Shown: positions 517-51,936, counted from the stretch's first letter. The stretch: DNA of 64,000 nt from Chloroflexota bacterium (GCA_034422515.1 DAOUJP010000025.1:221692-285691); one strand, 5' to 3'. Made by a program: numbers and translations. The notes: generated by a model from the sequence alone, not told the origin.

Positions 517-680
517 TGTCCCCCTGCACAGCGGGGGGACCATAGGGGGCCCAGCCGCCAGCGTCCCGGCCCTCCCGGTTCTCTCCCTCGTCATTGCGGC
601 GCAAGCCGCAGTCCAGGACCATGCGTCCCCCACCCAAACTCCCCTTCCCTGCAGGGAAGGGGCCGGGGGTTAGGTCCCAC
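517..680 (+). repeat. composite dispersed repeat cluster: module B (518-551), module A hairpin (589-616), module C palindrome (640-678)
   Basis: B = gtccccc-N7-ggggggaccataggggg. A = gtcattgcggcgcaagccgcagtcc. C = ccccttccctgcagggaaggggccgggggttaggtcc. All three recur elsewhere in the window. Confidence 0.85.
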
Positions 681-772
681 TCGCCATCCCCCCATCCTGT
701 CCATCCATGTAAATCCCCCCGTTGCGCCCCGCCCCGCCCCGCCAATATGTCCCATTGACAGGAGGCTGACGG

Positions 773-1660
773 ATGCGAGACAAGTCTGGCGCACCGCGCG
801 CACCGGCTGGGAGCGGTCTCGGCATCTTGCCGGCCATCAGCGGTGGCATCGCCACCACGCCGAGGGCACCGGGCCATGAGCGACCCTCCGCCGCCCAGCG
901 CGCGGCGGGGCATGGCCGCCTGAGTGCCGCTTCTACGGCACCGGGTTATGACGTACCCCGCGCCACCACGGTGCGGGCGCCGGGTCATGACTGTCTGAGT
1001 GCCGCCCAAAAGGCACCGGGTCCCGACGTACCCCGCGCCACCACGGCCAGGGCGCCACGTCACGACCGTCTGAGTGCCGCGCCTTTGGTGCCGGAGCACA
1101 ACCGCTCCGGCGCCCCCAGCGCCGCCGCGGCGGCCCCCGACCGCTCCCCCGTCTCGCTCCCGCTGGCGCCGGGTCACGACTGCTCCCGTCGTGCATCCGG
1201 CGCCGCCGGTTCGCCGTCAGCCTCTGTCGCCCATCTCACCACCCAGGAGGAAACCGTGTACGACCGATTGTTCACCGCAGAAGAGGTGCAGGCACTGCTG
1301 GAAGCTGCCTCCGCACCGGTGCTTGATGGAGAGATCCGTGTACTCCAGGTCCTCATTTGCCGGGTCCTGGCCATTCGCCCCGACCGGGCCCAACCCCGCG
1401 GACGCCGGCGCGGTGGCGCCGGCCGGCGCTGGCAGCGCACCGTCCTGTTCCAACAGATCGCCGCCATCGGCCGCACCTGTGACATTCTCCAGCGGATGCT
1501 CAAGACGCAACGCGCCCTCGGCCCCGACGCCGCGTCGGAGCTGAATCAGTTACTCGACGAAGCGGCCAAGTACATGGACAACCCACCGCCGCCCGAAGAC
1601 CTCGTGATCGAAGAGTACGACCCCGACACGCGCACCATACGACCCTTCCACGAACCATAG
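773..1660 (+). CDS. hypothetical protein with N-terminal 25-aa tandem repeats (alternative internal start GTG 1255 with AGGAGG RBS)
   Basis: The 295-aa ORF has a strong RBS (caGGAGGctgacggATG). The C-terminal ~135 aa look protein-like (YDRLFTAEEVQALLEAASAPVLDGEIRVLQVLICRVL...). The N-terminal part is encoded by 75-bp tandem DNA repeats, which are in frame. Confidence 0.45.
   Translation: MRDKSGAPRAPAGSGLGILPAISGGIATTPRAPGHERPSAAQRAAGHGRLSAASTAPGYDVPRATTVRAPGHDCLSAAQKAPGPDVPRATTARAPRHDRLSAAPLVPEHNRSGAPSAAAAAPDRSPVSLPLAPGHDCSRRASGAAGSPSASVAHLTTQEETVYDRLFTAEEVQALLEAASAPVLDGEIRVLQVLICRVLAIRPDRAQPRGRRRGGAGRRWQRTVLFQQIAAIGRTCDILQRMLKTQRALGPDAASELNQLLDEAAKYMDNPPPPEDLVIEEYDPDTRTIRPFHEP
904..1110. 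repeat. tandem repeat, ~75-bp unit x ~2.8 (units ~904-978, 979-1053, 1054-1110 partial)
   Basis: Direct comparison of units: gccgggtcatgactgtctgagtgccgcccaaaaggcaccgggtcccgacgtaccccgcgccaccacggccagggc against neighbours shows ~80% identity. Each unit contains a gtgcc...ggcac inverted repeat. Confidence 0.75.
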
Positions 1661-1679
1661 CTAACCACACCCCGCCGCC

Positions 1680-1716
1680 GTCCCCCCGCCGCAGCGGGGG
1701 GACCATAGGGGGGCCA
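1680..1716 (+). repeat. module B hairpin repeat copy
   Basis: tccccccgccgcagcggggggaccataggggggcc. Confidence 0.85.
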
Positions 1717-1747
1717 GCCCCCCAAAAACGAGAAAGGAGCACTCCCC

Positions 1748-1840
1748 ATGACCGCTGAATGGTTGATCGTACCCCTCTCCGTCGCCCTGGGCCTGCTCGC
1801 CGCCTGGATCGAGCACAGCCGCTTCCGGCGCGTACCATGA
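1748..1840 (+). CDS. small hydrophobic protein (30 aa), putative
   Basis: AAGGAG RBS then ATG. Product MTAEWLIVPLSVALGLLAAWIEHSRFRRVP is a single TM-like segment. Its TGA overlaps the ATG of the next ORF (ATGA coupling). Confidence 0.35.
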   Translation: MTAEWLIVPLSVALGLLAAWIEHSRFRRVP

Positions 1841-2070
1841 GTCAGAGTTCACCGCCGCCAGCCCCGGCCCCGTGGGCACGCACCGCCGCTGCCCTCGGCA
1901 TCCTCGTCGTCTGGCTCGGCCTCGTCGTCTACGACGCCCTGTCGGCCGCCTGGGAGATGCCCCTGCTGCTCTGGGGACTGGGCATCGCCGACGTCACCTA
2001 CCTACTCGGCGTCAGCCTCCCCCGACTGCTCACCTCCGGCAACGGCCGCCCCCCTACTCCTCCCACGTAG
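1837..2070 (+). CDS. small membrane protein (77 aa), putative
   Basis: ATG overlaps the previous stop. Hydrophobic core ALGILVVWLGLVVYDALSAAWEMPLLLWGLGIADVTYLLGV. Confidence 0.4.
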   Translation: MSQSSPPPAPAPWARTAAALGILVVWLGLVVYDALSAAWEMPLLLWGLGIADVTYLLGVSLPRLLTSGNGRPPTPPT

Positions 2071-2082
2071 GGGCCGGGCACA

Positions 2083-2162
2083 GGTTCCCTCCCCCGTCGG
2101 GACGGGGGAGGGCTAGGGAGGGGGCCAGCTCCTCCCTCATCAAGTTGTCAACCTTCATCAGG
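2083..2162 (+). repeat. module D dispersed element (~80 nt), copy 1 of 3
   Basis: ggttccctcccccgtcgggacgggggagggctagggagggggccagctcctccctcatcaagttgtcaaccttcatca. Near-identical backbone at 15813-15893 and 62926-63008. Confidence 0.8.
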
Positions 2163-2195
2163 GCCGGGGCCGGGGGTGAGGAAAGCCGCCCCGCC

Positions 2196-3200
2196 CTACC
2201 CCCACACCTCCGGGTTGACCAAGTGCGCCGGCCGGCGCCCATCCAGCGCGTCGAGCAGCCCTTGCGCCGCCAGCTCGGCCATCCGCGCCCGCGTGCCGTG
2301 CGTGCCACTTCCGATATGCGGAGTGAGCGCCACGTTGTCGAGCGTCAGCAACGGATCGTCGGGCCGTAGCGGCTCCTCCTCAAACACGTCCAAGCCGGCG
2401 GCTGCCAACGGGCCGTCGCGCAAGGCCGCCGCCAGCGCCGGCTGGTCCACAATCGGGCCGCGCGCGGTATTGACCAGGATCGCCCCTTGCCGCATCGCGC
2501 CCAACTCGGCAGCGCCGAGCAGTCCCTGCGTCTCCGCCGTCAGCGCACAGTGAACGCTCACGAAGTCGGATTCGGCCAGCACCTCTGCCAAGCTCGCATA
2601 GCGCGCCCCATAGCGCCCCTCCACGTCGAGCTTGCGCGTGCGACTCGTGTAGATCACGTCCATCCCAAAGGCGACCGCGCGGCGCGTAACCGCTTGCCCG
2701 ATGGCGCCCATGCCGACAATGCCCAGGGTGGAACCGAACAGATCATGTCCCCACAGCAACCCCGGCTCGTACTCGCCCCACTGCCCGGACCGCACGTAGC
2801 GATCCGCCTCCGACAGCCGCCGCGCTGCCGCCAGCATCAGCCCGAACGCCAGCTCGGCCGTCGTGTCCACCAGCACGCCGGGCGTGTTGGTCACAGCCAC
2901 CCCGTATTTCGTGGCCGCGTCCACGTCTATGTAATCGAAGCCGACCCCAAAGCCCGTGACTGCCCGCAGCCGCGGCGCCGCCGCCAGAATCGGCTCGTCC
3001 AGCCGGTCCGTCGGCGGCATCGCAAAAATACCCTCCACACCGTCGGCAATCCGCTGATGCGTCACGTCCGGCGGCGCCGGCAGCTTACCCTCCCATACCT
3101 CCACGTCGCAGCGCGCGCGCAGCAGGTCCAGCCCACTCTCCGGATAACCCCAACTACAGAAGACCCGCGGCCGCGCCCCGCCGGTCGTGCTCTCAGCCAT
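2196..3200 (-). CDS. D-isomer-specific 2-hydroxyacid dehydrogenase (glyoxylate/hydroxypyruvate reductase family)
   Basis: NAD-binding GxGxxG (GIVGMGAIGQAV) plus catalytic R/E/H region (NTARGPIVD...LDVFEEEP...PHIGSGT). Confidence 0.9.
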   Translation of the reverse strand: MAESTTGGARPRVFCSWGYPESGLDLLRARCDVEVWEGKLPAPPDVTHQRIADGVEGIFAMPPTDRLDEPILAAAPRLRAVTGFGVGFDYIDVDAATKYGVAVTNTPGVLVDTTAELAFGLMLAAARRLSEADRYVRSGQWGEYEPGLLWGHDLFGSTLGIVGMGAIGQAVTRRAVAFGMDVIYTSRTRKLDVEGRYGARYASLAEVLAESDFVSVHCALTAETQGLLGAAELGAMRQGAILVNTARGPIVDQPALAAALRDGPLAAAGLDVFEEEPLRPDDPLLTLDNVALTPHIGSGTHGTRARMAELAAQGLLDALDGRRPAHLVNPEVWG

Positions 3201-3300
3201 TGCTCGCTCCTTGTCCGGCCGAACGGCCGTCCGCCCCTACCACCCTTCCGGCCCTCGGACTACCGCTGAATGGTAGCACGGAGCAGGTATCGGCCAAGCC

Positions 3301-3358
3301 GTAGGGGCGCAACATGTTGCACCCGTCCCCCCGTCGGGACGGGGGGACCATAGGGGGC
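3301..3358 (+). repeat. composite repeat: module F palindrome (gggcgcaacatgttgcaccc) + module B
   Basis: gtaggggcgcaacatgttgcacccgtccccccgtcgggacggggggaccatagggggcc. The same F+B arrangement is at 6038-6097 and, degenerate, at 7957-8014. Confidence 0.85.
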
Positions 3359-3423
3359 CGCCACCCCCGCTCGCCCCGCCGGCGTCACTCTTGCTATACT
3401 GGATGCCACAAAGGTTGTCAGCA

Positions 3424-4886: not shown

Positions 4887-4937
4887 CCTGCATTGCGCTT
4901 GTCCGTTATCTAGCCCGACATGGTGGCTACGATGCCC

Positions 4938-4971
4938 GTCCCCCCGCTGTGCGGGGGGACCATAGGGGGGC
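4938..4971 (+). repeat. module B hairpin repeat copy
   Basis: gtccccccgctgtgcggggggaccataggggggcc. Confidence 0.85.
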
Positions 4972-4997
4972 CGGATCGCAAGGCACGTAGGCTTGCC

Positions 4998-5819: not shown

Positions 5820-5844
5820 CCCCCACACTGCACCGCCGCCATCC

Positions 5845-6178
5845 GTCATTCCCGCGCAAGCCGCAATCCAGGGCCATTCATAGCCTCCGGTCGTCGCGTG
5901 GACTCCCCTGCCCTGCCAGGGAAGGGATCGGGGGTGAGGTCCCATCCGCCGCTCCAATCCGCCTTGCGCCTGTTTTCCGGGTTTACCTACCCCTGTCAGG
6001 AAGGGCCGGGCTGACTGGAGTAGGTACGGGTTTTCCCGTAGGGGCGCAACATGTTGCGCCCGTCCCCCCGTCGGGACGGGGGGACCATAGGGGGGACAGC
6101 CCTCCTCCTGTCTATCCCATCCATCCATGTAAAATACCTACCCCTGTCAGGAGAGGGCTGGGGGTGAGGCTCACCGGC
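5845..6178 (+). repeat. dense mosaic repeat cluster: A (5845-5869), C-variant (5903-5943), C-variant+G (5987-6032), F palindrome (6042-6061), B (6062-6097), E ccatccatgtaaa (6117-6138), C-variant (6140-6176)
   Basis: Each module matches other copies in the window, e.g. ctgactggagtaggtacgggtt also at 7928 and 13308. Confidence 0.85.
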
Positions 6179-6185
6179 ACTGCCG

Positions 6186-7691
6186 CTAGGAAATAGAGCC
6201 GTGCTCCTTCAGCAGGCGATCCGCCTGCCGCTGCATCTCGGTCAGCAGTTCACGCACCCCCTTCGTGCCCTCGACCAGTTCCTTCCAGCCCTCGCTCCAC
6301 ATCTTGTTGATGTCGCCTTGCTTGACGATGAGCTTGGTGGGCGCGGAGGCCTTGGCCGAGGCGGAGTACACCTCGGCGTCCTCGTAGGCGTGCAGCACCT
6401 TGGGCGTCGCGTCCTTGAACACCGAGTACCGGCCACCGCCCAACAAGGCCATCTCGTGCTGTGCCCCTTCGCCGATGATGAACTTGTTGAACTCCCACGC
6501 GCCGTCCGGCTCCTTGGCCTGCGCGGTGATGTAGCTGGCGTTATTAGCCAGCGGCACTCGCCGCAAACCGGTTGGCCCTTTCGGCAAGAGCGTCATCTGC
6601 AAGTCGAACTGTTCCTCCTGCAGCAGCCGTTGGAACGTCCGCGTGTAGTACGAGCCGGTCACCAGGGAGGCGTTCTCGCCCCTGGCGAAGTTCCCGCCGG
6701 CCACCTGATGCTCCCGCACCAGGTCCACCGCGAACTCGATCGCCTCGACGAACTCCGGCGTGTCAATGGTCGCCTTCGTGAAGTTGTCGTCGAACCAGTC
6801 CGCGCCCCACGCCAGCAGGACGTTGAGAATCCAGCCGGTGCTACTGAACGGCAGGTTGAAGGCGTACTGCGTGATCTCGTCGCCCTCTCGCTTCACCAGC
6901 TTCTTCGACATCTCCAACAGCGTGTTCCAGTTCCACTCGCCGGCCTGCTCCAGATCGCGCGGGTTTTCGAGGCCCACCTCCTGGAGCTTGTTCCACTTGT
7001 ACCAGAACTCCTTGCCGTTCGTGAACCAGGCCAATCCGTAGGTCTTGCCCTCGAACTTCTCCACCGCCGCCGGCACGAAGTTGTCCACCCGGATGTTCTT
7101 CTCTTTGGCCAAGAAGGGATCGAGCGCCTGAACGATCCCCTGGTCCACGTACCCCCCGATGATCGTGTAGTGGCCGTAGAGGAAGTCGTAGTAGTCACCG
7201 GCAGCAAACGTCGCCACCGCCTTCTCGGCCGAAGCGCCAATGCCCAAGGCCGGGTCCCACACGATCCGATACTGCGGGTTCTGCTCCTCGAAATTGCGGA
7301 AAATCGTGTTCCAGGCGTCCTTCCAGTAGAGCTGGTTCACGTCTACGTGCAGATACCGAATGATCTTCTGCTGCGTCAGCTTCTCGACCACCTTCTCCAC
7401 TGGCTTCTCGACGGTGACGACCCGTTCCACCACCACCGGCTTCTCGACGATCTTCTCGACGATAACCGGCTTCTCCTTCTCGACCACAATAGTCTCGCCA
7501 GCGCTCCCGGCCGCACCCTTGGCCCCCGCCGCCCCGGTCGCGCCCCGCTCACCCGCCGGCCCAGCCGGTCCAGCCGGCCCCGCCGGCCCCTGGACGTAGC
7601 GCACTTCGATTTCACCGCAGGCCACAGCCAACAGCCCGGCCAGCGCGGCGCTGGCTCCTCCCAGGTACGTTCGCCGAGTTGCTTTGCTCAT
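6186..7691 (-). CDS. ABC transporter substrate-binding lipoprotein (extracellular solute-binding protein family 1, sugar-type) with collagen-like/VEKPV linker
   Basis: Start ATG 7691 with GGAGGGAG RBS. Tat/lipobox-like N-terminus TRRTYLGGASAALAGLLAVAC. The linker carries a GPAGPAGPAGPAG repeat and an (I/V)VEKPV repeat. The SBP core has WKD..N..F... motifs. No adjacent permeases, so it is an orphan SBP. Confidence 0.85.
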   Translation of the reverse strand: MSKATRRTYLGGASAALAGLLAVACGEIEVRYVQGPAGPAGPAGPAGERGATGAAGAKGAAGSAGETIVVEKEKPVIVEKIVEKPVVVERVVTVEKPVEKVVEKLTQQKIIRYLHVDVNQLYWKDAWNTIFRNFEEQNPQYRIVWDPALGIGASAEKAVATFAAGDYYDFLYGHYTIIGGYVDQGIVQALDPFLAKEKNIRVDNFVPAAVEKFEGKTYGLAWFTNGKEFWYKWNKLQEVGLENPRDLEQAGEWNWNTLLEMSKKLVKREGDEITQYAFNLPFSSTGWILNVLLAWGADWFDDNFTKATIDTPEFVEAIEFAVDLVREHQVAGGNFARGENASLVTGSYYTRTFQRLLQEEQFDLQMTLLPKGPTGLRRVPLANNASYITAQAKEPDGAWEFNKFIIGEGAQHEMALLGGGRYSVFKDATPKVLHAYEDAEVYSASAKASAPTKLIVKQGDINKMWSEGWKELVEGTKGVRELLTEMQRQADRLLKEHGSIS

Positions 7692-7804
7692 CTGCTCCCT
7701 CCCCTTCCGCAGCGCCCTCGACTGTGGCACCCCACCGCCGGCAACGGCACAATACCGCACCCGCGAACCAAGCGTCAAACGGTCTAGGGCGAGGCATCAC
7801 CCCC

Positions 7805-8014
7805 GGTAGGGGCGCGATTCATCGCGCCCTGGAATTCGTCATTCCGGCGGAAGCCGCAATCCCCCTCTCGCTTGTGGAGCGGCCCTCACCCCCGTAGGCG
7901 TGTCCCTTGTGGGCGCCCTCTCCTCCTGACTGGGGTAGGTACGGGTTAATCCGTAGTGGGCTACAGCATGTTGCGCCCGTCCCCCTGCGAAGCGGGGGTA
8001 CCATAGGTCCCCCC
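7805..8014 (+). repeat. mosaic repeat cluster: F' palindrome gggcgcgattcatcgcgccc (7808-7829), A (7838-7862), G (7928-7949), degenerate F+B (7957-8014)
   Basis: Same modules as elsewhere. The F'-A pair recurs inverted at 55421-55468. Confidence 0.8.
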
Positions 8015-8190
8015 ACCCTAGCCCTATTCCTCCACCACCAGGGCATGCCACTTCGCGTGTCCGAGGGTTCGGGCCAGAGCGACTCTTTGGAAAACTATAG
8101 CAATTCTGCTATAGTTACGATCCCATGGACTGAGCCGTAGAAACCCTGAATGCGACCGTAGACCGGGAGCTTGACGCGCTGCCGGCCGAC

Positions 8191-8451
8191 ATGCGTGCCC
8201 GTTTCGTGCGCCTCTGTGAACTGATCGCGGCCGTTGGGTTGGATCGTGTCGGTGCGCCGCACGTCAGGCACGTGACCGGCCCGCTGTGGGAAATGCGTCT
8301 GAGCGGCCGCGCCGGCATATCGCGTGCGTTGTACGTTGCCGTCCGCAGCAAACGAGTTGTGGTAGTGCGGGTCTTCATCAAGAAGACCCGCAAGACTCCC
8401 CGCCGGGAGGTGGACTTGGCGCTGCAGCGCGCTAGGGAGGTGTTGGCATGA
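8191..8451 (+). CDS. type II toxin, RelE/ParE superfamily, HigB/Gp49-like (likely N-terminally truncated or decaying; see finding)
   Basis: GPLWEMRLSGRAGISRALYVAVRSKRVVVVRVFIKKTRKTPRREVDLALQRAR matches the Gp49/HigB signature lwElR...g.aRvlY....LL..F.KKtqktP..eielA..R. The in-frame upstream codons (8134-8190) encode the conserved N-terminus but are cut off from ATG 8125 by a TGA at 8131. Confidence 0.6.
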   Translation: MRARFVRLCELIAAVGLDRVGAPHVRHVTGPLWEMRLSGRAGISRALYVAVRSKRVVVVRVFIKKTRKTPRREVDLALQRAREVLA

Positions 8452-8738
8452 GCAATGTACGTGACTTGCACGAGCAATGGAGCCGGGACCCGGACTACCG
8501 GGCCGCCTATGACGAACTTGGTCCAGAGTTTGCGCTGGCCCGCTTGTTGATCGAGGCGCGTACCGGCGCCGGGCTGACGCAAGCACAGCTTGCCGCCCGC
8601 ATGAAGACCACGCAGTCGGTCATCGCCCGACTGGAGAGCGGCCGCGTTCACCCATCCACCAAAACGCTGGAGAGGGTTGCACAGGCCACCGGCACCCGGC
8701 TCAAGATCAGCTTTGAGCCTATCGGGGCCGCAGCCTGA
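8448..8738 (+). CDS. HTH XRE-family antitoxin (HigA-like)
   Basis: GGGAGG RBS, ATGA overlap with the toxin, and helix-turn-helix LTQAQLAARMKTTQSVIARLESG. Confidence 0.8.
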   Translation: MSNVRDLHEQWSRDPDYRAAYDELGPEFALARLLIEARTGAGLTQAQLAARMKTTQSVIARLESGRVHPSTKTLERVAQATGTRLKISFEPIGAAA

Positions 8739-8783
8739 CCTCCTACCATCGCCCCTGGCTCCGTCATCCCCATCATCTCGCCC

Positions 8784-8889
8784 GTCATTCCCGCGCCCGC
8801 AGGAATCCATGTCCCCCTGCGTAGCGGGGGGACCATAGGGGGGCCAGTGGATGGAGACAAGCCCGTCATTCCGGCACAGGCCGGAATCC
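8784..8889 (+). repeat. composite repeat A (8784-8808) + B (8811-8845) + A (8865-8889)
   Basis: gtcattcccgcgcccgcaggaatccatgtccccctgcgtagcggggggaccataggggggcc ... gtcattccggcacaggccggaatcc. The A-B junction ggaatccatgtccccc is identical at 18674. Confidence 0.85.
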
Positions 8890-8925
8890 AGAGTCGACAG
8901 AATCCGCCATGGCTGCTGTGGGCAA

Positions 8926-8954
8926 TTGAATCGCCTATAGACCGCTGATATGGT
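8926..8954 (+). promoter_or_regulatory. candidate sigma-70-type promoter TTGAAT-N17-TATGGT upstream of the 9044 gene
   Basis: AT-rich stretch in a GC-rich genome with hexamers at correct spacing ~90 nt upstream of the ATG. Confidence 0.3.
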
Positions 8955-9043
8955 AGAGGCAAGGAAGAAGTTATAGACACACCGGATATTGCCCGGCTAG
9001 GCGCCCCAGCCTCGCGGCGCGTGGTCAGGAAACCGAGGACAGC

Positions 9044-10702
9044 ATGGACTTTGTTGTGGGTCTAGCTCTAGCCGTAGTCCTTTGGGCAGGCATCACCTTG
9101 ATCGTGGGCATCATCCCTATGATCCATCGGCATAGAACAACGAAGGGCCTGCAACAAACCGACAAGGATGTGCATAAGCTTCTGACACCTGACGAGACGA
9201 TCGTCTGTATCGCGCGACAGGGCAATATCTCCGGATGGAAAGATACCGTAGTCGCCACCAATAACCGCATTATCATCCATCGAGTTAAGTGGCGCTGGTG
9301 GGGGAAGGCCGTTTTCGAAGCTGTCGCGTGGGAAGATGTCCAGAATGCGACCATTGACGGATTGTTCAGTGTTGCACATTTTCGCCTGACCACAACTGGT
9401 GGTCGCAAGCTCCTGATCGGCAACCTAGTCAAGGAGCAGGCCCGGATGCTGTTAACCATCTGCCACGAGAGGATCAAGCAGGGCAAAGATGTCGAAATTG
9501 AGCGAGTTGACGAGGGGCAGGACACCATGCGCCTGGATCAGATCGCCAGGGATGTGCATGCGATCCTAGCACCCAACGAGACCATCACTTACATCGCACA
9601 CCAGAGCACGGGATTCCTCGGTGGGAAGGATGCCGTAGTTGTCACCAACAAACGCGTTATCATCTACCGGATCAAGGTGCATTGGTCCGGGGAGAATGAG
9701 TCTACTTTCGAAAGTGTTGCGTGGAAAGATGTCTGGGATGTGTCCATTCACGAGACATTCGGGACTGCCGATTTCCGCCTGACCACGACCAACGGTCGCA
9801 CACTCCAACTCGCTAACTTGGTCAAGGAACAGGCCCAGGCATTATTAGCCATCTGCAAGAGGAAGCGGCGGAAACCGCGGCGTTGGCAGGAGAAGATTGA
9901 GCGGATTGATGCGATGCAAGATACCACACGCATGGCCGAGATCGTCAAGAGTGTGTACCCGATCCTGAAACGCAACGAGACGATCATTTACGCTGCACAC
10001 CAGGCTAAGGGCGGGAACGGCGCTGTAATAGTCACTAACAGACGCATTATCATCTACCGGATCAAGATGCGTTGGTCCGGGGGACATGAGCCTACCTTCG
10101 AAGATACCGTGTGGAAAGATGTCCAGGACGTGTCCATTGACGAGACATTCGGGATTACCGATTTCCGCCTGACCACGACCGACGGCCGCACGCTCCAACT
10201 CGCTAACTCGGTCAAGGAACAGGCCCAGGAATTACTGGCCATCTGCAAAGAGCGGACTGAAGCAGGGCACTATACCACGCTCCTATCTCAAGTCGCTGAG
10301 GCAGCACGGCAGGTTTCTGTCTCGGCAGGCGTTGATTTGGAGACAATGACGCCCAGTGAGTTTGAGAAGGTAGTCGCTCGCCTGTATGAGCAAATGGGAT
10401 TTAATGTGGACCTTACCCAACATAGTCACGACGGTGGCGTGGACCTGTATGCGCGCAGAACGAATGAAGCCGGCGTTGAGGGGGTTGCCGTCCAATGCAA
10501 ACACTACAGCGGCACTGTCGGCGTGGCAGAGGCCAGAGCGCTCTTTGGCGTCGTAAGCGCCGATCAGCGCCTAGCGCGGGGCGTACTCGTCACCAGTGGC
10601 TCGTTCTCCGCCGGTTGCCGGTTGTTTGTCGAGGGTAAGCGCATTGATCTTATTGACAGAGAGCGCCTGCGCGAGTTGCTAGATCGCTATGGGGTGCAAT
10701 AA
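9044..10702 (+). CDS. membrane-anchored protein with 3 tandem bacterial PH-like (bPH) repeats and C-terminal Mrr-type restriction endonuclease catalytic domain (PD-(D/E)xK)
   Basis: N-terminal TM helix (VVGLALAVVLWAGITLIVGIIPMI). Three ~130-aa repeats each with ...ETI.YIA.Q......KD.VV.TN.RIIIYRIK..W.........W.DV.......F....FRLTTT.GR.L.L.NLVKEQA..LL.IC... The C-terminus FEKVVARLYEQMGFNVDLTQHSHDGGVDLYA...VAVQCKHYSGTVGVAEARALFGVV...GVLVTSGSFSAGCRLFVEGKRIDLIDRERLRELL matches the Mrr_cat D-x-(Q/E)xK nuclease fold. GC is ~50% against ~68% background. Confidence 0.8.
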   Translation: MDFVVGLALAVVLWAGITLIVGIIPMIHRHRTTKGLQQTDKDVHKLLTPDETIVCIARQGNISGWKDTVVATNNRIIIHRVKWRWWGKAVFEAVAWEDVQNATIDGLFSVAHFRLTTTGGRKLLIGNLVKEQARMLLTICHERIKQGKDVEIERVDEGQDTMRLDQIARDVHAILAPNETITYIAHQSTGFLGGKDAVVVTNKRVIIYRIKVHWSGENESTFESVAWKDVWDVSIHETFGTADFRLTTTNGRTLQLANLVKEQAQALLAICKRKRRKPRRWQEKIERIDAMQDTTRMAEIVKSVYPILKRNETIIYAAHQAKGGNGAVIVTNRRIIIYRIKMRWSGGHEPTFEDTVWKDVQDVSIDETFGITDFRLTTTDGRTLQLANSVKEQAQELLAICKERTEAGHYTTLLSQVAEAARQVSVSAGVDLETMTPSEFEKVVARLYEQMGFNVDLTQHSHDGGVDLYARRTNEAGVEGVAVQCKHYSGTVGVAEARALFGVVSADQRLARGVLVTSGSFSAGCRLFVEGKRIDLIDRERLRELLDRYGVQ

Positions 10703-10750
10703 TCTGTGGGCTGGCCCCTACCCTAGCCTCCGCGCGGACTCCCCCTTCCC

Positions 10751-10797
10751 TACCAGGGAAGGGGCCGGGGGTTAGGTTCTCATCCCACCACTAACCA
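10751..10797 (+). repeat. module C palindrome repeat copy (with gcgcggactcccc leader)
   Basis: cccccttccctaccagggaaggggccgggggttaggttc. Confidence 0.8.
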
Positions 10798-12008
10798 CCG
10801 CCCGCCGATACCCCCAAGGTGTAGGGCGAGCGGCTGAGGCTGGGCGCCGGGAACAGGCGCGTTAGCAGCACCTCGGCGTCCTCGAACGGATCGGCCCCGT
10901 ACTGCTGCACGAACTCCGCGTGCAGCTGCCCCTCCAGCCCCGTCGGCGCGCGCAACGGCAGGTCGAGCCGGCGGTTCCCTTGCCGCGACGATTCGCGGAT
11001 CGCTATCAGTAGCTCCAAGTCGGTGCGCGCGGAAGTCCCGTAGACTGCCGGCCGGCCCTCGACAATCGAGCGATGCAGACCGAGCCAGGTATCCGCGCGA
11101 GCAACGTCGTCCGCGCTGGGCAGCGCATACTGCGAGTAGGGATTCTCCCAGGTCAGCGGTGGCTCAGTCGCCAGTTCGGCGTGCGTAATCGTTTCGCTGC
11201 CGTCCGCGCTAGCGCCCAGCACCGTCTCGATAGGAATCCGGCGACCACGCCGCGACCGGCTATCCTCCCACAACACCACCTCGTTGCCGACAATCGCCCC
11301 CTGCGTGCCAGCGACTTCCCACTCGTTGCCGCGGGTGGTACCAATCGGCCACTGGTAGACGCCTAGCTCACCATCGGCAAACTCAATGACGCCCAGCTCC
11401 CAGGTGCGCTGCGTGCGCGTGTGCCCATCCACCTCGACGAACGGCCGGACCGTGACGGGCGCACTTGTACCCCAGACGCCCACCGGCCGGCTGGTGATGA
11501 AGCGACGCATGGCGGCCATCCCGTGATAGCTGCCGGAGGTGTACCAGAAATGGACTTGGGTCACTTGTCCGAGTAGCCCCTGCTCGACCACCAGTCGCTT
11601 GAGCCGTTCGTGCGGCCACCGCCAGACGTTCTCGGAGACTTCGAGCAAGACGTTGTGTCGTTCGGCGGATGCCAGCATGTGATCGGCCATCGCCAACGTG
11701 GTTGCGATGGGCGTTTCCGTGATGATATGAGCGCCGCGCGCCGCGGCAACGGCCGTGACCAAGTGGTGTGCGTCCGGTGGCACCACCACGCCCACGACCT
11801 GCGGACGCACCGCGTCGAGCAGCGCCACCGGATGCGCGAATGTGGGCACGCCATAGGTCTCGGCAGCCCACTGCCGGCGTTCCTCCCGCGCGTCGCACAC
11901 GCCCACCAGCCGGAAGTGCTGGCGCAGCGTGCTGACTGTCGCCAAGTGCGTCGCACCGCGATTGCCGGCCCCGATAATGGCAGCAGTGAGCACAGGTCCC
12001 TCTGTCAC
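10791..12008 (-). CDS. Gfo/Idh/MocA family oxidoreductase
   Basis: Start GTG 12008 with GGAGGAGG RBS. Rossmann motif AAIIGAGNRG followed by a C-terminal alpha/beta domain. Confidence 0.85.
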   Translation of the reverse strand: MTEGPVLTAAIIGAGNRGATHLATVSTLRQHFRLVGVCDAREERRQWAAETYGVPTFAHPVALLDAVRPQVVGVVVPPDAHHLVTAVAAARGAHIITETPIATTLAMADHMLASAERHNVLLEVSENVWRWPHERLKRLVVEQGLLGQVTQVHFWYTSGSYHGMAAMRRFITSRPVGVWGTSAPVTVRPFVEVDGHTRTQRTWELGVIEFADGELGVYQWPIGTTRGNEWEVAGTQGAIVGNEVVLWEDSRSRRGRRIPIETVLGASADGSETITHAELATEPPLTWENPYSQYALPSADDVARADTWLGLHRSIVEGRPAVYGTSARTDLELLIAIRESSRQGNRRLDLPLRAPTGLEGQLHAEFVQQYGADPFEDAEVLLTRLFPAPSLSRSPYTLGVSAGGG

Positions 12009-13280: not shown

Positions 13281-13390
13281 GTCATTCCCGCTGTGCGGGG
13301 GGGATCATAGGCTGACTGGGGTAGATGTTCATTTGTGCAGTCATATACCGCTGCCCGGCCCCCGTCATTGCGGCTTGCGCCGCAATCCAG
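13281..13390 (+). repeat. chimeric A/B hybrid + G (13281-13324) and module A (13362-13390)
   Basis: gtcattcccgctgtgcgggggggatcataggctgactggggtag ... cccgtcattgcggcttgcgccgcaatccag. Confidence 0.8.
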
Positions 13391-13740
13391 TGGACGCAGG
13401 CGGCGGAGTTGCGGTAGGAGGCTGATGGAACACGATGACTACCAGGGCTAGATCACCTATGCCGAGGTGGCGGCTTTTCTCGCCGAGAGATGAGCGCACC
13501 GGTGAAGTGCTCACGGCGACGTGGGACGTGGCAGGTTTGCGGGCGGCGCTGGCGCCGGCGGAGCAGGCTGCAAGAGCGATGTGGGACGATTTCCGTAGAA
13601 GTACGCGCCCCGAGGATATACCAGTGTGAACTTGATACTCCGCGGTGGATGAGGAGCCGTAGGGAGCGAGTTGTGATGGACGACACCCTCACCCCAGCCG
13701 CAGTCCCCACTAACCACTCTCCACTCTTCACTCGCCACTG

Positions 13741-15717: not shown

Positions 15718-15919
15718 TAGCCCCTAACTATAGACGACGCGCACGTGGTCCGGGCCGCAGCAGTGTGGAGTTGCCGGCGGAATCGGCGGGGGAATGCAAA
15801 GGAGGAGAGTACGGTTCCCTCCCCTGGAGCTTGCTCCGGGGGAGGGCTAGGGTGGGGGCCAAAACACTACCCAGTTAAGTCCGCAACCTTCATTAGCCCC
15901 TAACTATAGACGACGCGCA
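15718..15919 (+). mobile_element. MITE-like insertion: 150-bp segment (15744-15893, includes module D 15813-15893) flanked by perfect 26-bp direct repeat tagcccctaactatagacgacgcgca (15718-15743 and 15894-15919)
   Basis: Exact 26/26 direct repeat seen in sequence. The insert carries a D element also present at 2083 and 62926 without this flank. Confidence 0.6.
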
Positions 15920-18546: not shown

Positions 18547-18651
18547 TCCCGCACTGGCTCCCGGAGCAACGCCACACGGAGCGCCTAGTCGGCCGCACCG
18601 CTCATGCTGACCATCTTGCATCATGAGCGAGTGTGAGCGGCCCCTACTTTC

Positions 18652-18713
18652 GTCATTCCGGCGGAAGCCGGAATCCATGTCCCCCGGCAGAGCGGGGGGA
18701 CCATAGGGGGGCG
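18652..18713 (+). repeat. composite repeat A (18652-18676, GNRA loop GGAA) + B (18679-18713)
   Basis: gtcattccggcggaagccggaatccatgtcccccggcagagcggggggaccataggggggcg. Confidence 0.85.
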
Positions 18714-18782
18714 TCGTTCCTGCTTGCACGGCAATGACCGGGAAACGCCAACGGAGCCATAGGAAACGAGGGAGGTCCCAGC

Positions 18783-22317: not shown

Positions 22318-22429
22318 GCCCCGTTACTCCTCGCGGCAGACAATAACGCTGCCGTCTACCCTCAAGTATAGACCCTGGCCCGGCCGCCCGAATTCTATCC
22401 GCGTCAGCCCATCCACCGCGGCACACCAC

Positions 22430-22463
22430 GTCCCCCCGCCGTGCGGGGGGACCATAGGGGGGC
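22430..22463 (+). repeat. module B hairpin repeat copy
   Basis: gtccccccgccgtgcggggggaccataggggggcg. Confidence 0.85.
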
Positions 22464-22496
22464 GAGTGCGCCACCGGCGTGTGGTATGGTGCAGCG

Positions 22497-23612
22497 ATGG
22501 CTAGTACGTTTGGCGTGCTGTTCCGGGTGACGACCTGGGGGGAGTCGCATGGCGGGGGCGTAGGCGTCGTCGTGGACGGCTGCCCCCCTCGGATCGCGCT
22601 CGACGCTGCCACCATTCAGCACGAGTTGGACCGCCGCCGCCCCGGACAGAGCCGCATCACCACCCAGCGCAAAGAAGAGGACCAAGTCGAAATCATCTCC
22701 GGCGTGTTCGAGGGACACACCCTCGGCACGCCCATCTCGCTGATGGTGAAGAACAAGGACGCCCGGCCGAAAGACTACGCGGAAGTCCGCGTCAAGTATC
22801 GCCCCTCCCACGCCGACTACACCTACCAGGCCAAGTACGGCATCCGCGACTGGATGGGTGGCGGCCGGGCCTCGGCGCGCGAAACCGTCGGCCGGGTCGC
22901 AGCCGGCGCGATTGCGAAACGCATTCTGCGCGAGGCCGGCGGCATAGACATCGTTGCCTACGTCAAGCAAGTCCATGACCTCGTTGCCGACGTGGACCCG
23001 GGCGCCGTCACGCTCGACGACGTGGAGGCCAACATCGCCCGCTGCCCGGACGCCGCCTGCGCCGAGCGCATGATCGAGCGCATTGACGCGGCCCGCAAGG
23101 CTGGCGACTCGCTCGGCGGCGTGGTCGAGTGTGTCGCCCGGAACGTACCGGTCGGCCTGGGTGAGCCGGTGTTCGACAAGCTCGAAGCCGATCTGGCCAA
23201 GGCGATGCTCTCGTTGCCGGCCGCCAAAGGCTTCGAGATCGGCTCCGGGTTCGCTGGCATCCTCATGACCGGCTCGACCCACAACGACCCCTTCTACAGT
23301 GACGCCGGCGCCATCCGCACCCGCACGAACTACTCCGGTGGCATCCAGGGTGGCATCTCGAACGGCGAGCCGATCATCTTTCGCGTGGCCTTCAAGCCGA
23401 CGGCCACCATCCTCAAAGAGCAGGAAACGGTAGACGTGGAGGGCCGGCCCACCACCCTCCGCGGGCGCGGGCGGCACGACCCCTGCGTCCTGCCGCGCGC
23501 CGTCCCAATGGTCGAGGCCATGGCCGCGCTCACCCTCGCCGACCATTGGCTCCGCCAGCAAGCCATGCAGAGCTATCCCGCGCCGTCCCCCTGCGAAGCG
23601 GGGGGACCATAG
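22497..23612 (+). CDS. aroC: chorismate synthase
   Basis: N-terminus [27 protein letters not shown] and internal [16 protein letters not shown] match AroC. The 3' end reads into a B repeat (23585-23618). Confidence 0.9.
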
Positions 23613-23618
23613 GGGGGC
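23585..23618 (+). repeat. module B hairpin repeat copy (overlaps aroC 3' end)
   Basis: gtccccctgcgaagcggggggaccataggggggcc. Confidence 0.85.
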
Positions 23619-23636
23619 CTGCCAAAGGACCGCGCG

Positions 23637-25587: not shown

Positions 25588-25628
25588 CTTGCCCCCCTCT
25601 CCCCATCGCAACAGGGGAGGAATGAGCC

Positions 25629-25663
25629 GTCCCCCCGCCGCAACGGGGGGACCATAGGGGGGC
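25629..25663 (+). repeat. module B hairpin repeat copy
   Basis: gtccccccgccgcaacggggggaccataggggggcg. Confidence 0.85.
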
Positions 25664-25685
25664 GTGGAATAATCAAGAAAAGGAC

Positions 25686-27728: not shown

Positions 27729-27741
27729 CCTCCGAGGCCCC

Positions 27742-27776
27742 GTCCCCCTGCGAAGCGGGGGGACCATAGGGGGGCC
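27742..27776 (+). repeat. module B hairpin repeat copy
   Basis: gtccccctgcgaagcggggggaccataggggggcc. Confidence 0.85.
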
Positions 27777-27805
27777 TGTATCCTACACGGCCCTCTCCTC
27801 CCAGT

Positions 27806-45970: not shown

Positions 45971-46012
45971 GAGGCTCGCGCATACGGACAAGGAAGAGAC
46001 AAGGATCACACG

Positions 46013-47017: not shown

Positions 47018-47077
47018 GCGCGGATGACGTTGCCCGGCTATTCCGGTGTCTGTAGGAGTGCAGCCAGACCGTAGTCC

Positions 47078-47113
47078 CGTCCCCCCGCCGCGGCGGGGGG
47101 ACCATAGGGGGCT
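47078..47113 (+). repeat. module B hairpin repeat copy
   Basis: gtccccccgccgcggcggggggaccatagggggct. Confidence 0.85.
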
Positions 47114-47151
47114 ACATCCTACAGAGAGAGGGTTGGGGTAGGTCCGGCCAG

Positions 47152-48771: not shown

Positions 48772-48834
48772 GTTTCTTTGCTCTCCCCTCGTAGGGGTAA
48801 GGCGTAGCTGGCTCCGACCAGCCACTCCGGCGCG

Positions 48835-49626
48835 TCAGGGGCGCAGCGCCGTGAGCACCATCCCGGTATCGTCGGCCGCGTCCACTGTACCCGACGGCTG
48901 CGCCTCATGCCGCTGCACCGCGGCAAAGCCCACGGCGGTTAGCAGATGGAGCCAGGTCCGTAGCGGGAAGATACCGCACGTATGGCGGTCGGATTCGATT
49001 GACAGGCCCCCGTCCCGCCGGATGAGATACAGAAAAGTCACCTCATACGTCGTATCGGAGTGGTCCGGATCGTAGACGTTCTCCACCATGACGACCTCCG
49101 TATCGCCGGCGGTATGCACGGAAGTCCAGGTCCGGTTTTGCCGGAACCGCTCCGGTGTGGCCTCGACAACAGTGAGGAAGACCCCGCCGGGCCGCAACTG
49201 GGCAAAGGCCGTCTCGAACGCTGCCCGTAAATCATCCGGCGCGCACATATACGCCACGGCGTCGAAGAGCACTACCGCGTCAAACGCCTCGCCTAAGCGC
49301 ACCTCGCGCAGATCGCCGACGCGATAGGCGACGTGAGGATTGAGCCGGCGCGCCAAGGCCAGCATCGCCGGGCTGCGGTCCACGCCCGTGACCGCAAAAT
49401 GCCGCCGCAGGTGATAGTCGTGGTGCCCACCGCCACAGCCCAAGTGCAGCAGCGACCGCACCGGGCGCCGGCTGCGTTGCTCGATCAGCTGGCGATATTC
49501 CGCGCACTCCTCGCGGTAGTCCTCCGCCGGGCTGACGATAGGCCACAGCCAGGCCAGGTCGTCATACAGCCGCGGCCCGCTGTCCTGCGGGCGCAGCCGC
49601 GCCGTCGGACGGCGCTGCTTTTGCAT
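48835..49626 (-). CDS. class I SAM-dependent methyltransferase
   Basis: GAGGTGG RBS before ATG 49626. SAM-binding motif LHLGCGGGHH and VLFDAVAYM. The start overlaps the 3' end of the upstream amidohydrolase by ~65 nt. Confidence 0.75.
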   Translation of the reverse strand: MQKQRRPTARLRPQDSGPRLYDDLAWLWPIVSPAEDYREECAEYRQLIEQRSRRPVRSLLHLGCGGGHHDYHLRRHFAVTGVDRSPAMLALARRLNPHVAYRVGDLREVRLGEAFDAVVLFDAVAYMCAPDDLRAAFETAFAQLRPGGVFLTVVEATPERFRQNRTWTSVHTAGDTEVVMVENVYDPDHSDTTYEVTFLYLIRRDGGLSIESDRHTCGIFPLRTWLHLLTAVGFAAVQRHEAQPSGTVDAADDTGMVLTALRP

Positions 49627-51229
49627 AGACCACCTCGCCGCCAATGATCGTGTGGCTTACTCGTGCCGCCAATATGGCGTGCGGCGGCCGGTCGAAGATA
49701 TTCGGCTTGATGATCGTGAGGTCGGCCGCCGCGCCCGGCCGGAGCGTCCCATGCCTGTGCTCCAGCCCGGCCGCATAGGCCGCGCCGACCGTATAGGCCC
49801 GCACCGCCGCCGCGAGCGAGATGCGCTCCTCCGGGTACCAGCCGCCGGCCGGCGTGCCGTCGGGCCGCTGCCGCGTGACCGCCGCAAAGAGACCGGCCAA
49901 CGGGTCCGGCGTCTCCACTGGTGCATCAGATCCGAACGCCAGGACCGTCCCGGCCCGCAGCAAGCTGCCGAACGCATAGGCGCCACGGCTGCGCGCGCCC
50001 CAGAAGCGGTCGGCGTTGTCCATGTCCTGCGTCGTGTGGATCGGCTGCATGGACGCGACGACGCCAAGGGCGGCCAGGCGCGGGATGTCGTCCGGGTGGA
50101 GCACCTGGACGTGCTCGATGCGTGGGCGGCGCAGAGGATCGTCGGTCGGTAGGTGCGCGTCGGCTACCGTGTCGAGGGCTTGCCGATTGGCCCGGTCGCC
50201 GATGGCGTGCATCGCTACGCCGAAGCCGGCATCAGACGCGCGCTGGAGCAAGTCGGCCAACTCCTCCGGCGGGGTAATCACCACGCCGGTATTGCCCGGC
50301 TCGTCCTCGAACGGCGCCAACATCGCGGCCGTGTGCGAGCCGAGCGATCCATCGAGAAAGCATTTCAGGTGCCCGATACGCAGGCGTCCGTTGCCCCAAC
50401 CGGCCGCCATCCGGCGAGCAATAAGCTGATCGAGCGTGGCGGCCGGCGGCAGGTAGACGACCCGCAGCCGCAGTTCCCCGGCAGCCGCAAGGTCTTGCAG
50501 CGCGGCAAAGGTCGCCGGCGTGTCCGGCGCATGAACACAGGTGATTCCCAGCTTGAGCAGCGCCGCCTGTGCCCGCCGCAACGCGCCCCGCAGCACTTCC
50601 GGCGGCGGGTCGCCAATCGCCGTCTCGACAAGCCGCTGGGCCGACTCGCGCACAATGCCGCTCGGCGCCCCGTCCGCCTCCCGGTCAATCACCCCACCGG
50701 CCGGCTGCGGCGTATCCCGACCAATCCCGGCGCGGCGCAGGGCCGCCGAACTGACCCAAGTGATGTGCCGATCCTTGCGAGCGAGGGCGACGGGCCGGCC
50801 GCCGGCGACAGCATCAAGCGCGTGCCGGTCCGGCACGCGGGGTTCCGGCCAGAGCGTATGGTCCCAGCCGCCGCCGAGCAGCCAAGCGTCGCGCGGCAGT
50901 TCACCGGCCCGCGCCGCCACCAGCGCCACCGCTTCGGCAAGTGACCCGACATCCGTCAGATCCAGCTGCTCTAGCTGCAAGCCATAGGCGCCGAGATGCA
51001 AATGGGCATCGGTCAGGCCCGGCAGCACACAGGCGCCCGGCACGTGTAGCTCTTCCACACCGCGCCGATCAAGCGCCCGCGCAGCCGCCCGCACCTCGGC
51101 CGCCGAGCCAACGGCATGCACCCGGCCGCCGACCAGCAACAGCGCCTCGGCCTCCGGCTGCGCCGAGTGCATCGTCACCACGCGGCCACCGTAGATCGCC
51201 AGCGCCCGCACCGCCTCGGTCATGGTCAT
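49562..51229 (-). CDS. amidohydrolase-3 family metal-dependent hydrolase
   Basis: PGLTDAHLHL metal-binding start, GGGWD and the Amidohydro_3 C-terminal half (HAIGD...GSDAPV). Confidence 0.85.
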   Translation of the reverse strand: MTMTEAVRALAIYGGRVVTMHSAQPEAEALLLVGGRVHAVGSAAEVRAAARALDRRGVEELHVPGACVLPGLTDAHLHLGAYGLQLEQLDLTDVGSLAEAVALVAARAGELPRDAWLLGGGWDHTLWPEPRVPDRHALDAVAGGRPVALARKDRHITWVSSAALRRAGIGRDTPQPAGGVIDREADGAPSGIVRESAQRLVETAIGDPPPEVLRGALRRAQAALLKLGITCVHAPDTPATFAALQDLAAAGELRLRVVYLPPAATLDQLIARRMAAGWGNGRLRIGHLKCFLDGSLGSHTAAMLAPFEDEPGNTGVVITPPEELADLLQRASDAGFGVAMHAIGDRANRQALDTVADAHLPTDDPLRRPRIEHVQVLHPDDIPRLAALGVVASMQPIHTTQDMDNADRFWGARSRGAYAFGSLLRAGTVLAFGSDAPVETPDPLAGLFAAVTRQRPDGTPAGGWYPEERISLAAAVRAYTVGAAYAAGLEHRHGTLRPGAAADLTIIKPNIFDRPPHAILAARVSHTIIGGEVVYAKAAPSDGAAAPAGQRAAAV

Positions 51230-51270
51230 GGTGCTTGATATTTTCTCAGCAGCCTATCCACCCGCAAATC

Positions 51271-51816
51271 TCACGGTGCCGCAAAGTGCGGCGAGGGATG
51301 CTGCCGGGTGAGACCCGGCTGCGTGTACCACGCCTCCGGACCGCTCGCTGCCAACGACCCGTCCGCCAGAATATGGTGCAGCGTCAGGCCGTCGTTTTGC
51401 AGTGTCCGGCCAATGAGGTTGTGCCGATGGCACTGGCGATAGTCGCCCTCGCTACACATGATGCAAGCGCGCTCGCGCCGCATCAGCTGCTTGAGCCGTG
51501 CGATGGCTTGACGGTACGCGGGTAGCCCGGTCATCCGCTCGTAGTCCACCCGCCCCGCCGCGTCATACGCTTCCCCCGTATCGGGACGCCCGCCCAACTC
51601 ACTGCCGGCGAAACGATACTTGATCCCGTGCCGCTGAAGATACTGCTGGAGCGGCTGCTTGTTGAACCACGGCGCAATGCCGCTGTACGGAGCAGACCGC
51701 ACGTCCACCACCAGCGTAATGTTGTGCTGCCGCAGTAACTCGATGAACCGTCCCAGGGCCAGCCGGCTATGACCAATCGTGTATAAGGCTGCCCCCTCAC
51801 CCGGCCGATCACCCAT
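51271..51816 (-). CDS. DUF488 family protein
   Basis: LYTIGHS...L.....LVDVR..P.S signature of DUF488. Confidence 0.7.
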   Translation of the reverse strand: MGDRPGEGAALYTIGHSRLALGRFIELLRQHNITLVVDVRSAPYSGIAPWFNKQPLQQYLQRHGIKYRFAGSELGGRPDTGEAYDAAGRVDYERMTGLPAYRQAIARLKQLMRRERACIMCSEGDYRQCHRHNLIGRTLQNDGLTLHHILADGSLAASGPEAWYTQPGLTRQHPSPHFAAP

Positions 51817-51901
51817 GCTTCCCACCTCACCACACCCTTAATGCTACCCAACGAGAGCGCCGCTACCCCTCTTGACAGAGGTGGTTCTTTGTCGAGGGCC
51901 C

Positions 51902-51936
51902 GTCTCCCCGTCGCAACGGGGGGACCATAGGGGGGC
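51902..51936 (+). repeat. module B hairpin repeat copy
   Basis: gtctccccgtcgcaacggggggaccataggggggct. Confidence 0.85.

Follow-up and report, generated by a model that had tools for sequence, protein, structure and literature searches.

Why should a short intergenic hairpin, repeated among genes that run in both directions, always be written on the same strand? The question is raised by a 64,000-nucleotide stretch of a Chloroflexota bacterium genome (GCA_034422515.1, DAOUJP010000025.1:221692-285691), here called the window, in which copies of a hairpin repeat, module B, are dispersed between positions 517 and 51,936 and all point the same way. Judged by its sequence, module B is a divergent family resembling repetitive extragenic palindromic (REP) elements, belongs to a head-to-tail, skew-locked REP system of Chloroflexota, and is not one of the described families.

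Module B in the window

Module B has the layout CC-GTCCCCCY-GY-loop-RC-GGGGGGAC-CATAGGGGGGC. The exact pattern GTCCCCCC-N4-12-GGGGGGAC is matched seven times in the window, always on the + strand, and never in 100 shuffles, and a relaxed 18-mer search of the window returns 14 sites, again all on the + strand. The sequence CATAGGGGGG, with at most one mismatch, has 13 + strand matches beside hairpins and one unrelated - strand match, with 4.6 matches expected. A covariance model (CM) built on 140 distinct module B copies and run unfiltered on both strands of the window reports 13 full-length copies scoring 49-66 bits, all on the + strand, plus one partial + copy; its - strand matches are only the palindromic stems of the + copies. 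The initial annotation had listed 15 copies in a single orientation. All are indeed on one strand, and the count resolves into 13 intact copies, one partial copy and one hybrid (Table 1). Their density is very uneven, with 12 of the 14 copies detected by the covariance model lying in the first 28 kb.

Gene directions, taken from our own composition-based gene calls, place the copies in co-directional, convergent and divergent intergenic regions, as had been proposed. One copy was said to overlap the 3' end of aroC (chorismate synthase), and it does so in such a way that the aroC stop codon is the TAG (23610-23612) within the element's CATAGG; the insertion has thus rewritten the final codons of a housekeeping gene. 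The TAG of the element ends upstream open reading frames (ORFs) at 26 of 180 copies, compared with about 20 per control frame, and is not enriched in this role.

Related sequences were collected by an 18-mer scan of species-representative genomes, giving at least 108 blocks of 8 kb or less, and all counts in relatives refer to matches listed in these blocks. Nearly all of the listed blocks are from Chloroflexota metagenome-assembled genomes (MAGs), including six complete chromosomes of 4.2-4.4 Mb; two short contigs with an 18-mer match are labelled Chthonomonadia and Bacteriovoracaceae, and a scan of viral contigs gives six single matches. Together the window and the listed blocks amount to ~0.93 Mb of screened sequence (0.86 Mb of it related sequence), a sample of ~5% of any one genome. 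The window genes are ~90% identical to those of JAJDUF01 (L061) and OY759972.1 (L052), and their population is also represented in an ENA metagenome assembly.

Alignment of 198 copies from the window and its relatives shows the anatomy of the unit. Conservation runs from the three to four C's before GTC through to the C that follows the G6 run (CC-GTCCCCCC to GGGGGGC), and information content has fallen to background by 4 nt on the upstream side and 2 nt on the downstream side; this abrupt drop at both ends gives a unit length of ~38 nt, with the form CC-C/T-GTCCCCC-Y-G-Y-(loop 3-4)-R-C-GGGGGGAC-CATA-GGGGGG-C. The stem, GTCCCCCYGY/RCGGGGGGAC, has 10 bp with a lone T.A pair at position 2, closes a loop of 3-4 nt, and is paired in 97% of cells of the alignment; another count puts the paired cells at 91%. 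Its innermost pair alternates between C-G (57) and U-A (31), a compensatory change, and at pair 8 a subfamily of 37-50 copies (the T8 subfamily) has T.G, whereas C.A never occurs. The aligned copies, with this covarying pair, bear out the suggestion that stem and tail are conserved and the loop is variable. The 5' C-run is also able to pair with the 3' G-run over a four-base CATA bulge, with 67-96% of cells paired. The consensus hairpin folds as DNA at -16.6 kcal/mol, and the written strand of T8 copies folds at -12.6, better than its complement at -10.4. The base before GTC, tallied on 193 copies, is C in 87% (CGTC) and T in 12% (TGTC); the GTC itself is complementary to the 3' GAC and is paired in 94-99% of copies. 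After the stem, A-CCA runs on into a conserved TAGGGGGGC extension that is lacking in the described CGTC families. The consensus carries CCGTC on the 5' side and CATAG on the 3' side, and contains no GTAG.

Orientation follows strand composition and not gene direction

The window has a G+C content of 61-69% and a GC skew that is negative in each 4-kb interval, and its genes on both strands are C-rich on the + strand. In the listed relatives, module B has 187 copies, 85 on the + strand and 102 on the - strand, and its orientation changes many times along a chromosome. Measured over 2 kb on each side with the element itself left out, flank GC skew is negative or positive in the ratio 62:23 for + copies and 14:88 for - copies. 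At the level of blocks, orientation is correlated with GC skew (Spearman rho -0.60, p = 5e-12), blocks of single orientation give a Fisher p of 6e-8, and the relation is present inside each well-sampled genome. The same is seen with skew at third codon positions, corrected for a small coding-strand effect (60/17 and 24/83 for the two orientations). The third-position skews of + and - genes correlate over blocks at 0.75, showing that the skew is strand-wide, and GC skew is anticorrelated with AT skew, a pattern of the keto type. Keto-type skew is usual for replication bias.

Gene direction has no such relation to orientation. In the relatives, 42 copies are sense to both flanking genes and 47 are antisense to both, with 31 in convergent and 26 in divergent regions, and the fraction of + strand genes is not significantly related to orientation (rho -0.15), so the claim that the bias is independent of transcription holds. 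For ordinary G6 runs, counted outside the repeats, the G-rich strand is the preferred one (odds ratio 0.26), whereas for the G-tailed elements it is the C-rich strand (~17). Because the ordinary runs associate in the opposite sense, the orientation bias is not an artefact of composition. The initial annotation had also proposed coupling to the replication strand. What stands of this is that orientation tracks a strand-wide skew (rho -0.60 with total skew and -0.61 with third-position skew); the skew domains form a patchwork, so that a connection with replication is inferred.

Other hairpin families share the polarity

A repeat search of the window reveals further families of dispersed hairpins, F6, F7 and F8, and a longer composite (D20/D11). 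Most REPs have been sorted into GTAG-tagged and CGTC-tagged superfamilies (Di Nocera, De Gregorio & Rocco 2013, PMC3733652). F7, of general form CGTC-ATTSCGGC-loop-GCCGSAAT-CCA, agrees with every textual criterion for CGTC-1 elements, F8 is a GTAG REP, and F6 is a hairpin with a tail of the GGGGTKAGG type. Polarity in all three matches that of module B, with p from 1e-7 to 2e-20: in the relatives, the ratio of negative to positive skew is 42:7 for + copies and 5:48 for - copies of F6, 49:14 and 6:83 for F7, and 17:5 and 2:29 for F8. We also note that the lock to GC skew is tighter in F7 than in module B, and that a TAGG or GAGG tail core is common to all three G-tailed families.

These units form mosaics. 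An F7 or F8 unit adjoins module B on its 5' side at 3296, 6033, 8783 and 18651, and where neighbouring units are no more than 150 nt apart, 217 of 230 are in the same orientation (head-to-tail) and 13 are opposed. The five module B pairs within 150 nt of one another are all direct, with no opposed pairs. Clear exceptions to the common orientation in the window are only an F6-type tail at 13687 and a - strand pair of F8 and F7 (~55420-55475); the latter, a GTAG REP followed by a CGTC REP, is the only clear reversed mosaic. The degenerate hybrid at 13281, in which a 5' arm of the CGTC-REP type is joined to a module B 3' arm, ties module B to F7. Its tail variant, CATAGG(G)CTGAC, is also present in L013, L062 and L100, and this recurrence suggests recombination or conversion between families.

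Two larger arrangements were also observed. An 85-nt composite repeat is present at 2091-2161, 15813-15896 and 62926-63006, each time just downstream of a - strand gene, and consists of a hairpin, CCCTCCCC-GGAGC..GCTCC-GGGGAGGG, followed by CTAGGG and a conserved segment ending in AACCTTCATNAG. In CAZOAL01 (GC 0.51; L024, L028, L064, L072, L079, L044), module B lies mid-way in a ~250-nt repeat whose copies are 90-97% identical and whose ends are inverted F6-like sequences, so that module B there is part of a larger unit that resembles MITEs (miniature inverted-repeat transposable elements).

Turnover between close relatives

Between relatives that are ~90% identical, orthologous intergenic regions differ in the modules that they hold. 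The window and OY759972.1 both have the copy at 518, and other modules stand in place of those at 1680, 47078 and 51902. JAJDUF01 carries a ~60-nt insertion with a module B copy that has no counterpart in the window (49603-49623). In L104 a module B copy occupies, between identical flanks, the exact site held by F6-type units in L022, and L045 has ~85 nt of extra modules between F7 and module B units that adjoin in L081. Turnover at this level of identity suggests mobility.

What accounts for the polarity

The anatomy of module B and its CGTC- and GTAG-tagged neighbours agree with the REP-like nature first proposed for it. We give about an even chance to the view that it is a short non-coding REP-like palindrome, one of at least four families, which is non-autonomous and is processed strand-specifically as single-stranded DNA. 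The enzyme would be encoded elsewhere in the genome, most plausibly as an HUH Y1 (RAYT/IS200-type) nuclease-ligase, and the polarity would come from the asymmetric availability of single-stranded DNA at replication forks. The C/A-rich strand is conventionally the lagging strand, that is, the leading-strand template. The initial annotation had placed the active hairpin on the template of the lagging strand; the strand with the 5' tag (CGTC or GTAG) and the better-folding hairpin are found on the C/A-rich strand instead. This position on the presumed leading-strand template favours a version in which copies with their active strand on the exposed lagging-strand template would be excised and lost, and from our analysis such preferential retention seems more likely than preferential insertion into the lagging-strand template. 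Assigning the active strand the other way round would be an alternative reconciliation. A wider proposal, possible if doubtful, is that the whole REP repertoire (GTAG, CGTC and untagged G-tail) is under one replication-coupled, strand-specific process with a polarity opposite to that of IS200/IS605 elements, or serves as a chromosome-wide fork-polarity signal; under a single process, units would persist only with their recognisable strand on the leading-strand template, which is rarely single-stranded.

Several observations weigh against strand-specific processing. The one-sided T.G wobble at pair 8 represents one inherited subfamily change and not many independent events. No clean filled and empty junction, target motif or target duplication was found among the few orthologous pairs. 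Strict and loose HUH...Y regular expressions applied to six-frame ORFs, and phmmer with E. coli RayT (NC_000913.3), detect no HUH/Y1 transposase in the window and 0.86 Mb of related sequence; with ~5% of any genome sampled and a distant query, this absence says little. The initial annotation had likewise seen no RAYT gene in the window, and Pfam, run on ten of its ORFs, finds no Y1/HUH gene. A screen for within-genome paralogues, used as a proxy for insertion sequences, gives no transposase and only Uma2-family nucleases and epimerases. Should the G/T-rich strand be the leading one, the polarity would be the reverse of what is documented for IS200/IS605. Skew domains on the two best-sampled chromosomes are patchy, with switches on a kilobase scale in place of two replichores, which makes any connection with replication direction an indirect one. 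No dnaA or dnaN is found by Pfam at the sharp skew switches in L068 and L054, only an IS30-like transposase. For CGTC REPs, published work found no dedicated transposase (PMC3733652).

Other markers of replication direction give little help: tRNA genes in the listed blocks number only five and are uninformative, rRNA primer sites have no matches there, and genes show no strand bias against third-position skew. In L068 (OZ241866.1, 48-56 kb), L054, L069, L103 and L108, the sign of the skew switches within 1-2 kb and the repeats flip at the same place. The patchy domains fit many inversions that moved skew and repeats together.

This pattern of joint switching is what would be expected from historical hitch-hiking, in which units inserted in one orientation into ancestral segments by array growth or gene conversion, and inversions later shuffled skew and orientation together, leaving no present coupling to replication. 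Arrays do grow by insertion beside existing units, and orientation switches coincide with the kilobase-scale skew switches between patchy domains. However, the units turn over faster than the ~10% divergence of the genes, and third-position skew is far slower to build, so that newly arrived units must still choose a strand; the polarity is moreover identical in every sampled genome and family. We consider hitch-hiking improbable. Rather unlikely, and the stronger rival of the two, is a host-selected feature of replication polarity, in which hairpin and G-run units are kept or purged by orientation for their effects on the fork, for example to avoid structures on the exposed lagging-strand template or as strand-specific signals for priming, restart or pausing, and mobility is secondary. 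Such a structural constraint, common to four sequence-unrelated families of one polarity, would need no four cognate enzymes, and it accords with a G-rich tail that in all families runs counter to the compositional trend by sitting on the C-rich strand, with a bias independent of transcription, and with the lack of any transposase found in ~0.93 Mb. Set against this, copies are gained, lost and swapped in close relatives and their density is uneven, unlike a spaced signal; the sharply bounded, tagged units are like the known mobile REPs; discordant copies amount to ~20%; and stems of 10 bp are short for blocking forks.

Very improbable is a function at the level of RNA, with transcribed hairpins acting as terminators or stabilisers of mRNA 3' ends, as proposed for many REPs and, for this repeat, in the initial annotation. 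In its favour are the intergenic position of the copies, often close behind stop codons, the stability of the hairpin, its tolerance of T.G pairs on the written strand, and a REP literature that favours transcribed copies. Since orientation is independent of gene direction (42 and 47 copies sense and antisense, and 26 in divergent promoter regions), a terminator or stabiliser role cannot explain the polarity, and the coupling to skew is left unaccounted for; there is also no U-tract and no Rfam match, and half of the transcripts would carry the conserved asymmetric tail in antisense form.

Few non-coding repeats of bacteria are as abundant as REPs; their spread is understood only in part, and the CGTC superfamily has no known enzyme. 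Singletons tied to skew would provide a genomic read-out of a strand-specific step, insertion or excision, with single-stranded DNA at the fork as the indicated substrate. If the wider proposal is right, this would be the first REP system composed of head-to-tail, replication-oriented singletons, and an entry to how CGTC REPs spread. The units also supply stop codons and make intergenic regions differ between close relatives, and in long-read MAG assemblies they could give rise to deletions and inversions.

Repeats and neighbouring genes of the window

Table 1. Hairpin repeats of the window, with positions counted from its first nucleotide (CM, covariance-model score).
Feature	Position	Strand	Evidence and context
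Module B, T8 subfamily	512..553	+	CM 54.5 bits; divergent intergenic; kept at OY759972.1 orthologous site (L052 alignment)
F7, canonical CGTC-tagged REP: CGTC-ATTCCGGC-GGAA-GCCGGAAT-CCA	589..622	+	repeat family D7, orientation counts, sequence
F6, hairpin with G-rich tail: CCCCTTCCC-TGCA-GGGAAGGGG-CCGGGGGTTAGGTCC	632..682	+	repeat family D6
Module B, consensus sequence	1674..1716	+	CM 65.7 bits; missing at L052 orthologous site, other modules there
F8, GTAG-tagged REP: GTAG-GGGCGCAAC-ATG-TTGCGCCC	3296..3324	+	repeat family D8
Module B, GTAG-tagged REP (3296-3324) directly 5'	3319..3361	+	CM 55 bits; repeat family D8
Module B, flanked by co-directional + genes	4932..4973	+	CM 58.9 bits; gene calls
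Module B, GTAG REP (6033-6061) 5', convergent region	6056..6098	+	CM 60.6 bits
Partial module B: hairpin and CCATAGG, G-run tail decayed	7977..8007	+	CM 27.9 bits, model positions 5-36
Module B fused to CGTC REP (8783-8810) upstream	8805..8846	+	CM 58.6 bits; repeat family D3/D7
Hybrid/degenerate copy: 5' arm GTCATTCCCGC (CGTC-REP type), 3' arm GCGGGGGGGAT, tail CATAGGCTGAC	13281..13315	+	sequence
Module B fused to CGTC REP (18651-18678) upstream	18673..18714	+	CM 49.4 bits
Module B upstream of aroC, divergent region	22424..22465	+	CM 57.8 bits; Pfam Chorismate_synt
Module B overlapping aroC 3' end	23579..23620	+	CM 58.2 bits; ORF 22479-23612
Module B, flanked by co-directional + genes	25623..25665	+	CM 58.1 bits
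Module B, convergent region	27736..27777	+	CM 60.2 bits
Module B, convergent region	47073..47115	+	CM 54.4 bits; JAJDUF01 (L061) orthologous site has different modules
Module B between co-directional - genes	51896..51938	+	CM 60.1 bits; L061 site has ~300-nt array of other modules
Further F7 copies	5844, 7837, 8783, 8864, 13363, 18651, 24567	+	
Further F7 copy	~55420-55447	-	
Further F8 copies	~6033 (6033-6061), ~7806	+	
Further F8 copy	~55449-55475	-	
Further F6 copies	5896, 10734, 16995, 24586, 63027		

Among the genes of the window, the segment at ~6000-12000 has a lower GC content (0.61, compared with 0.67) and is bracketed and interrupted by arrays of CGTC REPs and module B. Its genes include a toxin-antitoxin-like pair of the Gp49/HTH type (~8191-8738, as called by ENA), a nuclease, Mrr_cat-bPH (9044-10702), and one for a protein of 500-530 aa without a domain, and the segment looks like a small defence island. 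Module B also flanks, on both sides, a multi-copy, fast-evolving ORF (711-1660; ORF 773-1660) that contains three tandem repeats of 75 nt (25 aa; 898-1122) and, C-terminally, a domain without a Pfam match. Copies of this ORF are present in L034 (1118-1984), L052, L063, L068, L094 and L022, and its presumed orthologue is only 52% identical, while flanking genes are ~92% identical at the DNA level. Two pairs of paralogous genes, the members of each pair lying side by side and encoding ~507-513 aa each (27806-29329/29602-31125 and 59418-60959/61289-62815), form long direct repeats with 70-83% identity. Rfam and tRNA scans of the window detect nothing. Among the relatives, L007, L013, L030 and L103 show several paralogous Uma2-family (putative restriction-endonuclease-like) genes per genome.

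Comparison with known systems

Some familiar types of repeat can be set aside. An intrinsic terminator is rejected, as the hairpin is followed by CATAGGGGGGC without a U-tract and its orientation is independent of gene direction. A polar motif of the KOPS or Chi type, which would be short, G-rich and over-represented on the leading (G-rich) strand, is rejected on the position of the G-rich tail on the C-rich strand, with ordinary G6 on the G-rich strand, and on the 38-nt hairpin and rapid turnover; and a CRISPR array on the lack of spacers and of regular spacing.

Among the closest known systems are the CGTC REPs, a superfamily that includes dRS3 of Neisseria and RPE-4/6 of Rickettsia (PMC3733652). 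These have a tetranucleotide CGTC (variants TGTC, CCTC) at one end, unpaired, an 8-9 bp stem beginning with two A.T pairs, a loop of 4-5 nt and a CCA tail, and occur mostly as head-to-head dimers with head-to-tail arrangements negligible; for Chloroflexi, GTAG repeats are listed and CGTC repeats are not (PMC3733652). Like these REPs, module B consists of a short hairpin with a short loop, present in many copies between genes; CGTC or TGTC stands at its 5' end, and CCA comes after the stem. Unlike in these REPs, its GTC pairs with the 3' GAC, its stem is 10 bp of G/C and not 8-9 bp starting with A.T, it has the extra conserved TAGGGGGGC tail, and its units are head-to-tail singletons and not head-to-head dimers (217 versus 13). 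The differing stem, paired tag, extra tail and head-to-tail arrangement place it as a divergent REP-like family outside those described.

With the GTAG REPs and the REPIN-RAYT system, module B has in common a G/C hairpin with a flanking tag, clusters resembling the bacterial interspersed mosaic elements (BIMEs), turnover, and a presumed role as a single-strand substrate of a Y1 HUH enzyme, and a GTAG REP (F8) adjoins it three times in the window. It differs in having neither GTAG nor the inverted doublets known as REPINs, which form long hairpins, and no RAYT, in such systems a single-copy Y1 HUH gene with its cognate repeats on both sides, was found in the ~0.93 Mb. E. coli BIMEs carry both orientations and either strand can be processed; because BIMEs and REPINs hold both orientations they have no net strand polarity, unlike module B. 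No report of replication-strand polarity in REPs was found in the literature searched, and a term search of PMC3733652 shows none described there.

IS200/IS605 elements have an orientation bias that comes from single-strand transposition, with the active top strand accumulating on the lagging-strand template, that is, on the leading strand. Members such as IS608 and ISDra2, and their transposase-less derivatives, have an orientation tied to the replication strand, hairpin-based recognition and no terminal inverted repeats, features that module B would share. Their two subterminal hairpins, left and right, differ from each other, and a target or cleavage tetranucleotide is conserved at the left junction, whereas module B has a single hairpin and no detectable target, and their active strand is on the G-rich leading strand, whereas the tag strand of module B is on the C-rich strand.

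The attC sites of sedentary integrons are confined to one array beside intI, where they separate gene cassettes, whereas module B is dispersed genome-wide between ordinary genes without an integrase context; an attC array is rejected. Like module B, however, attC sites are imperfect hairpins in a common orientation, and they are recombined as single strands. Their bottom, recombinogenic strand is kept on the leading-strand template, where folding and excision are rare, and the logic of this polarity is the one proposed here for module B.

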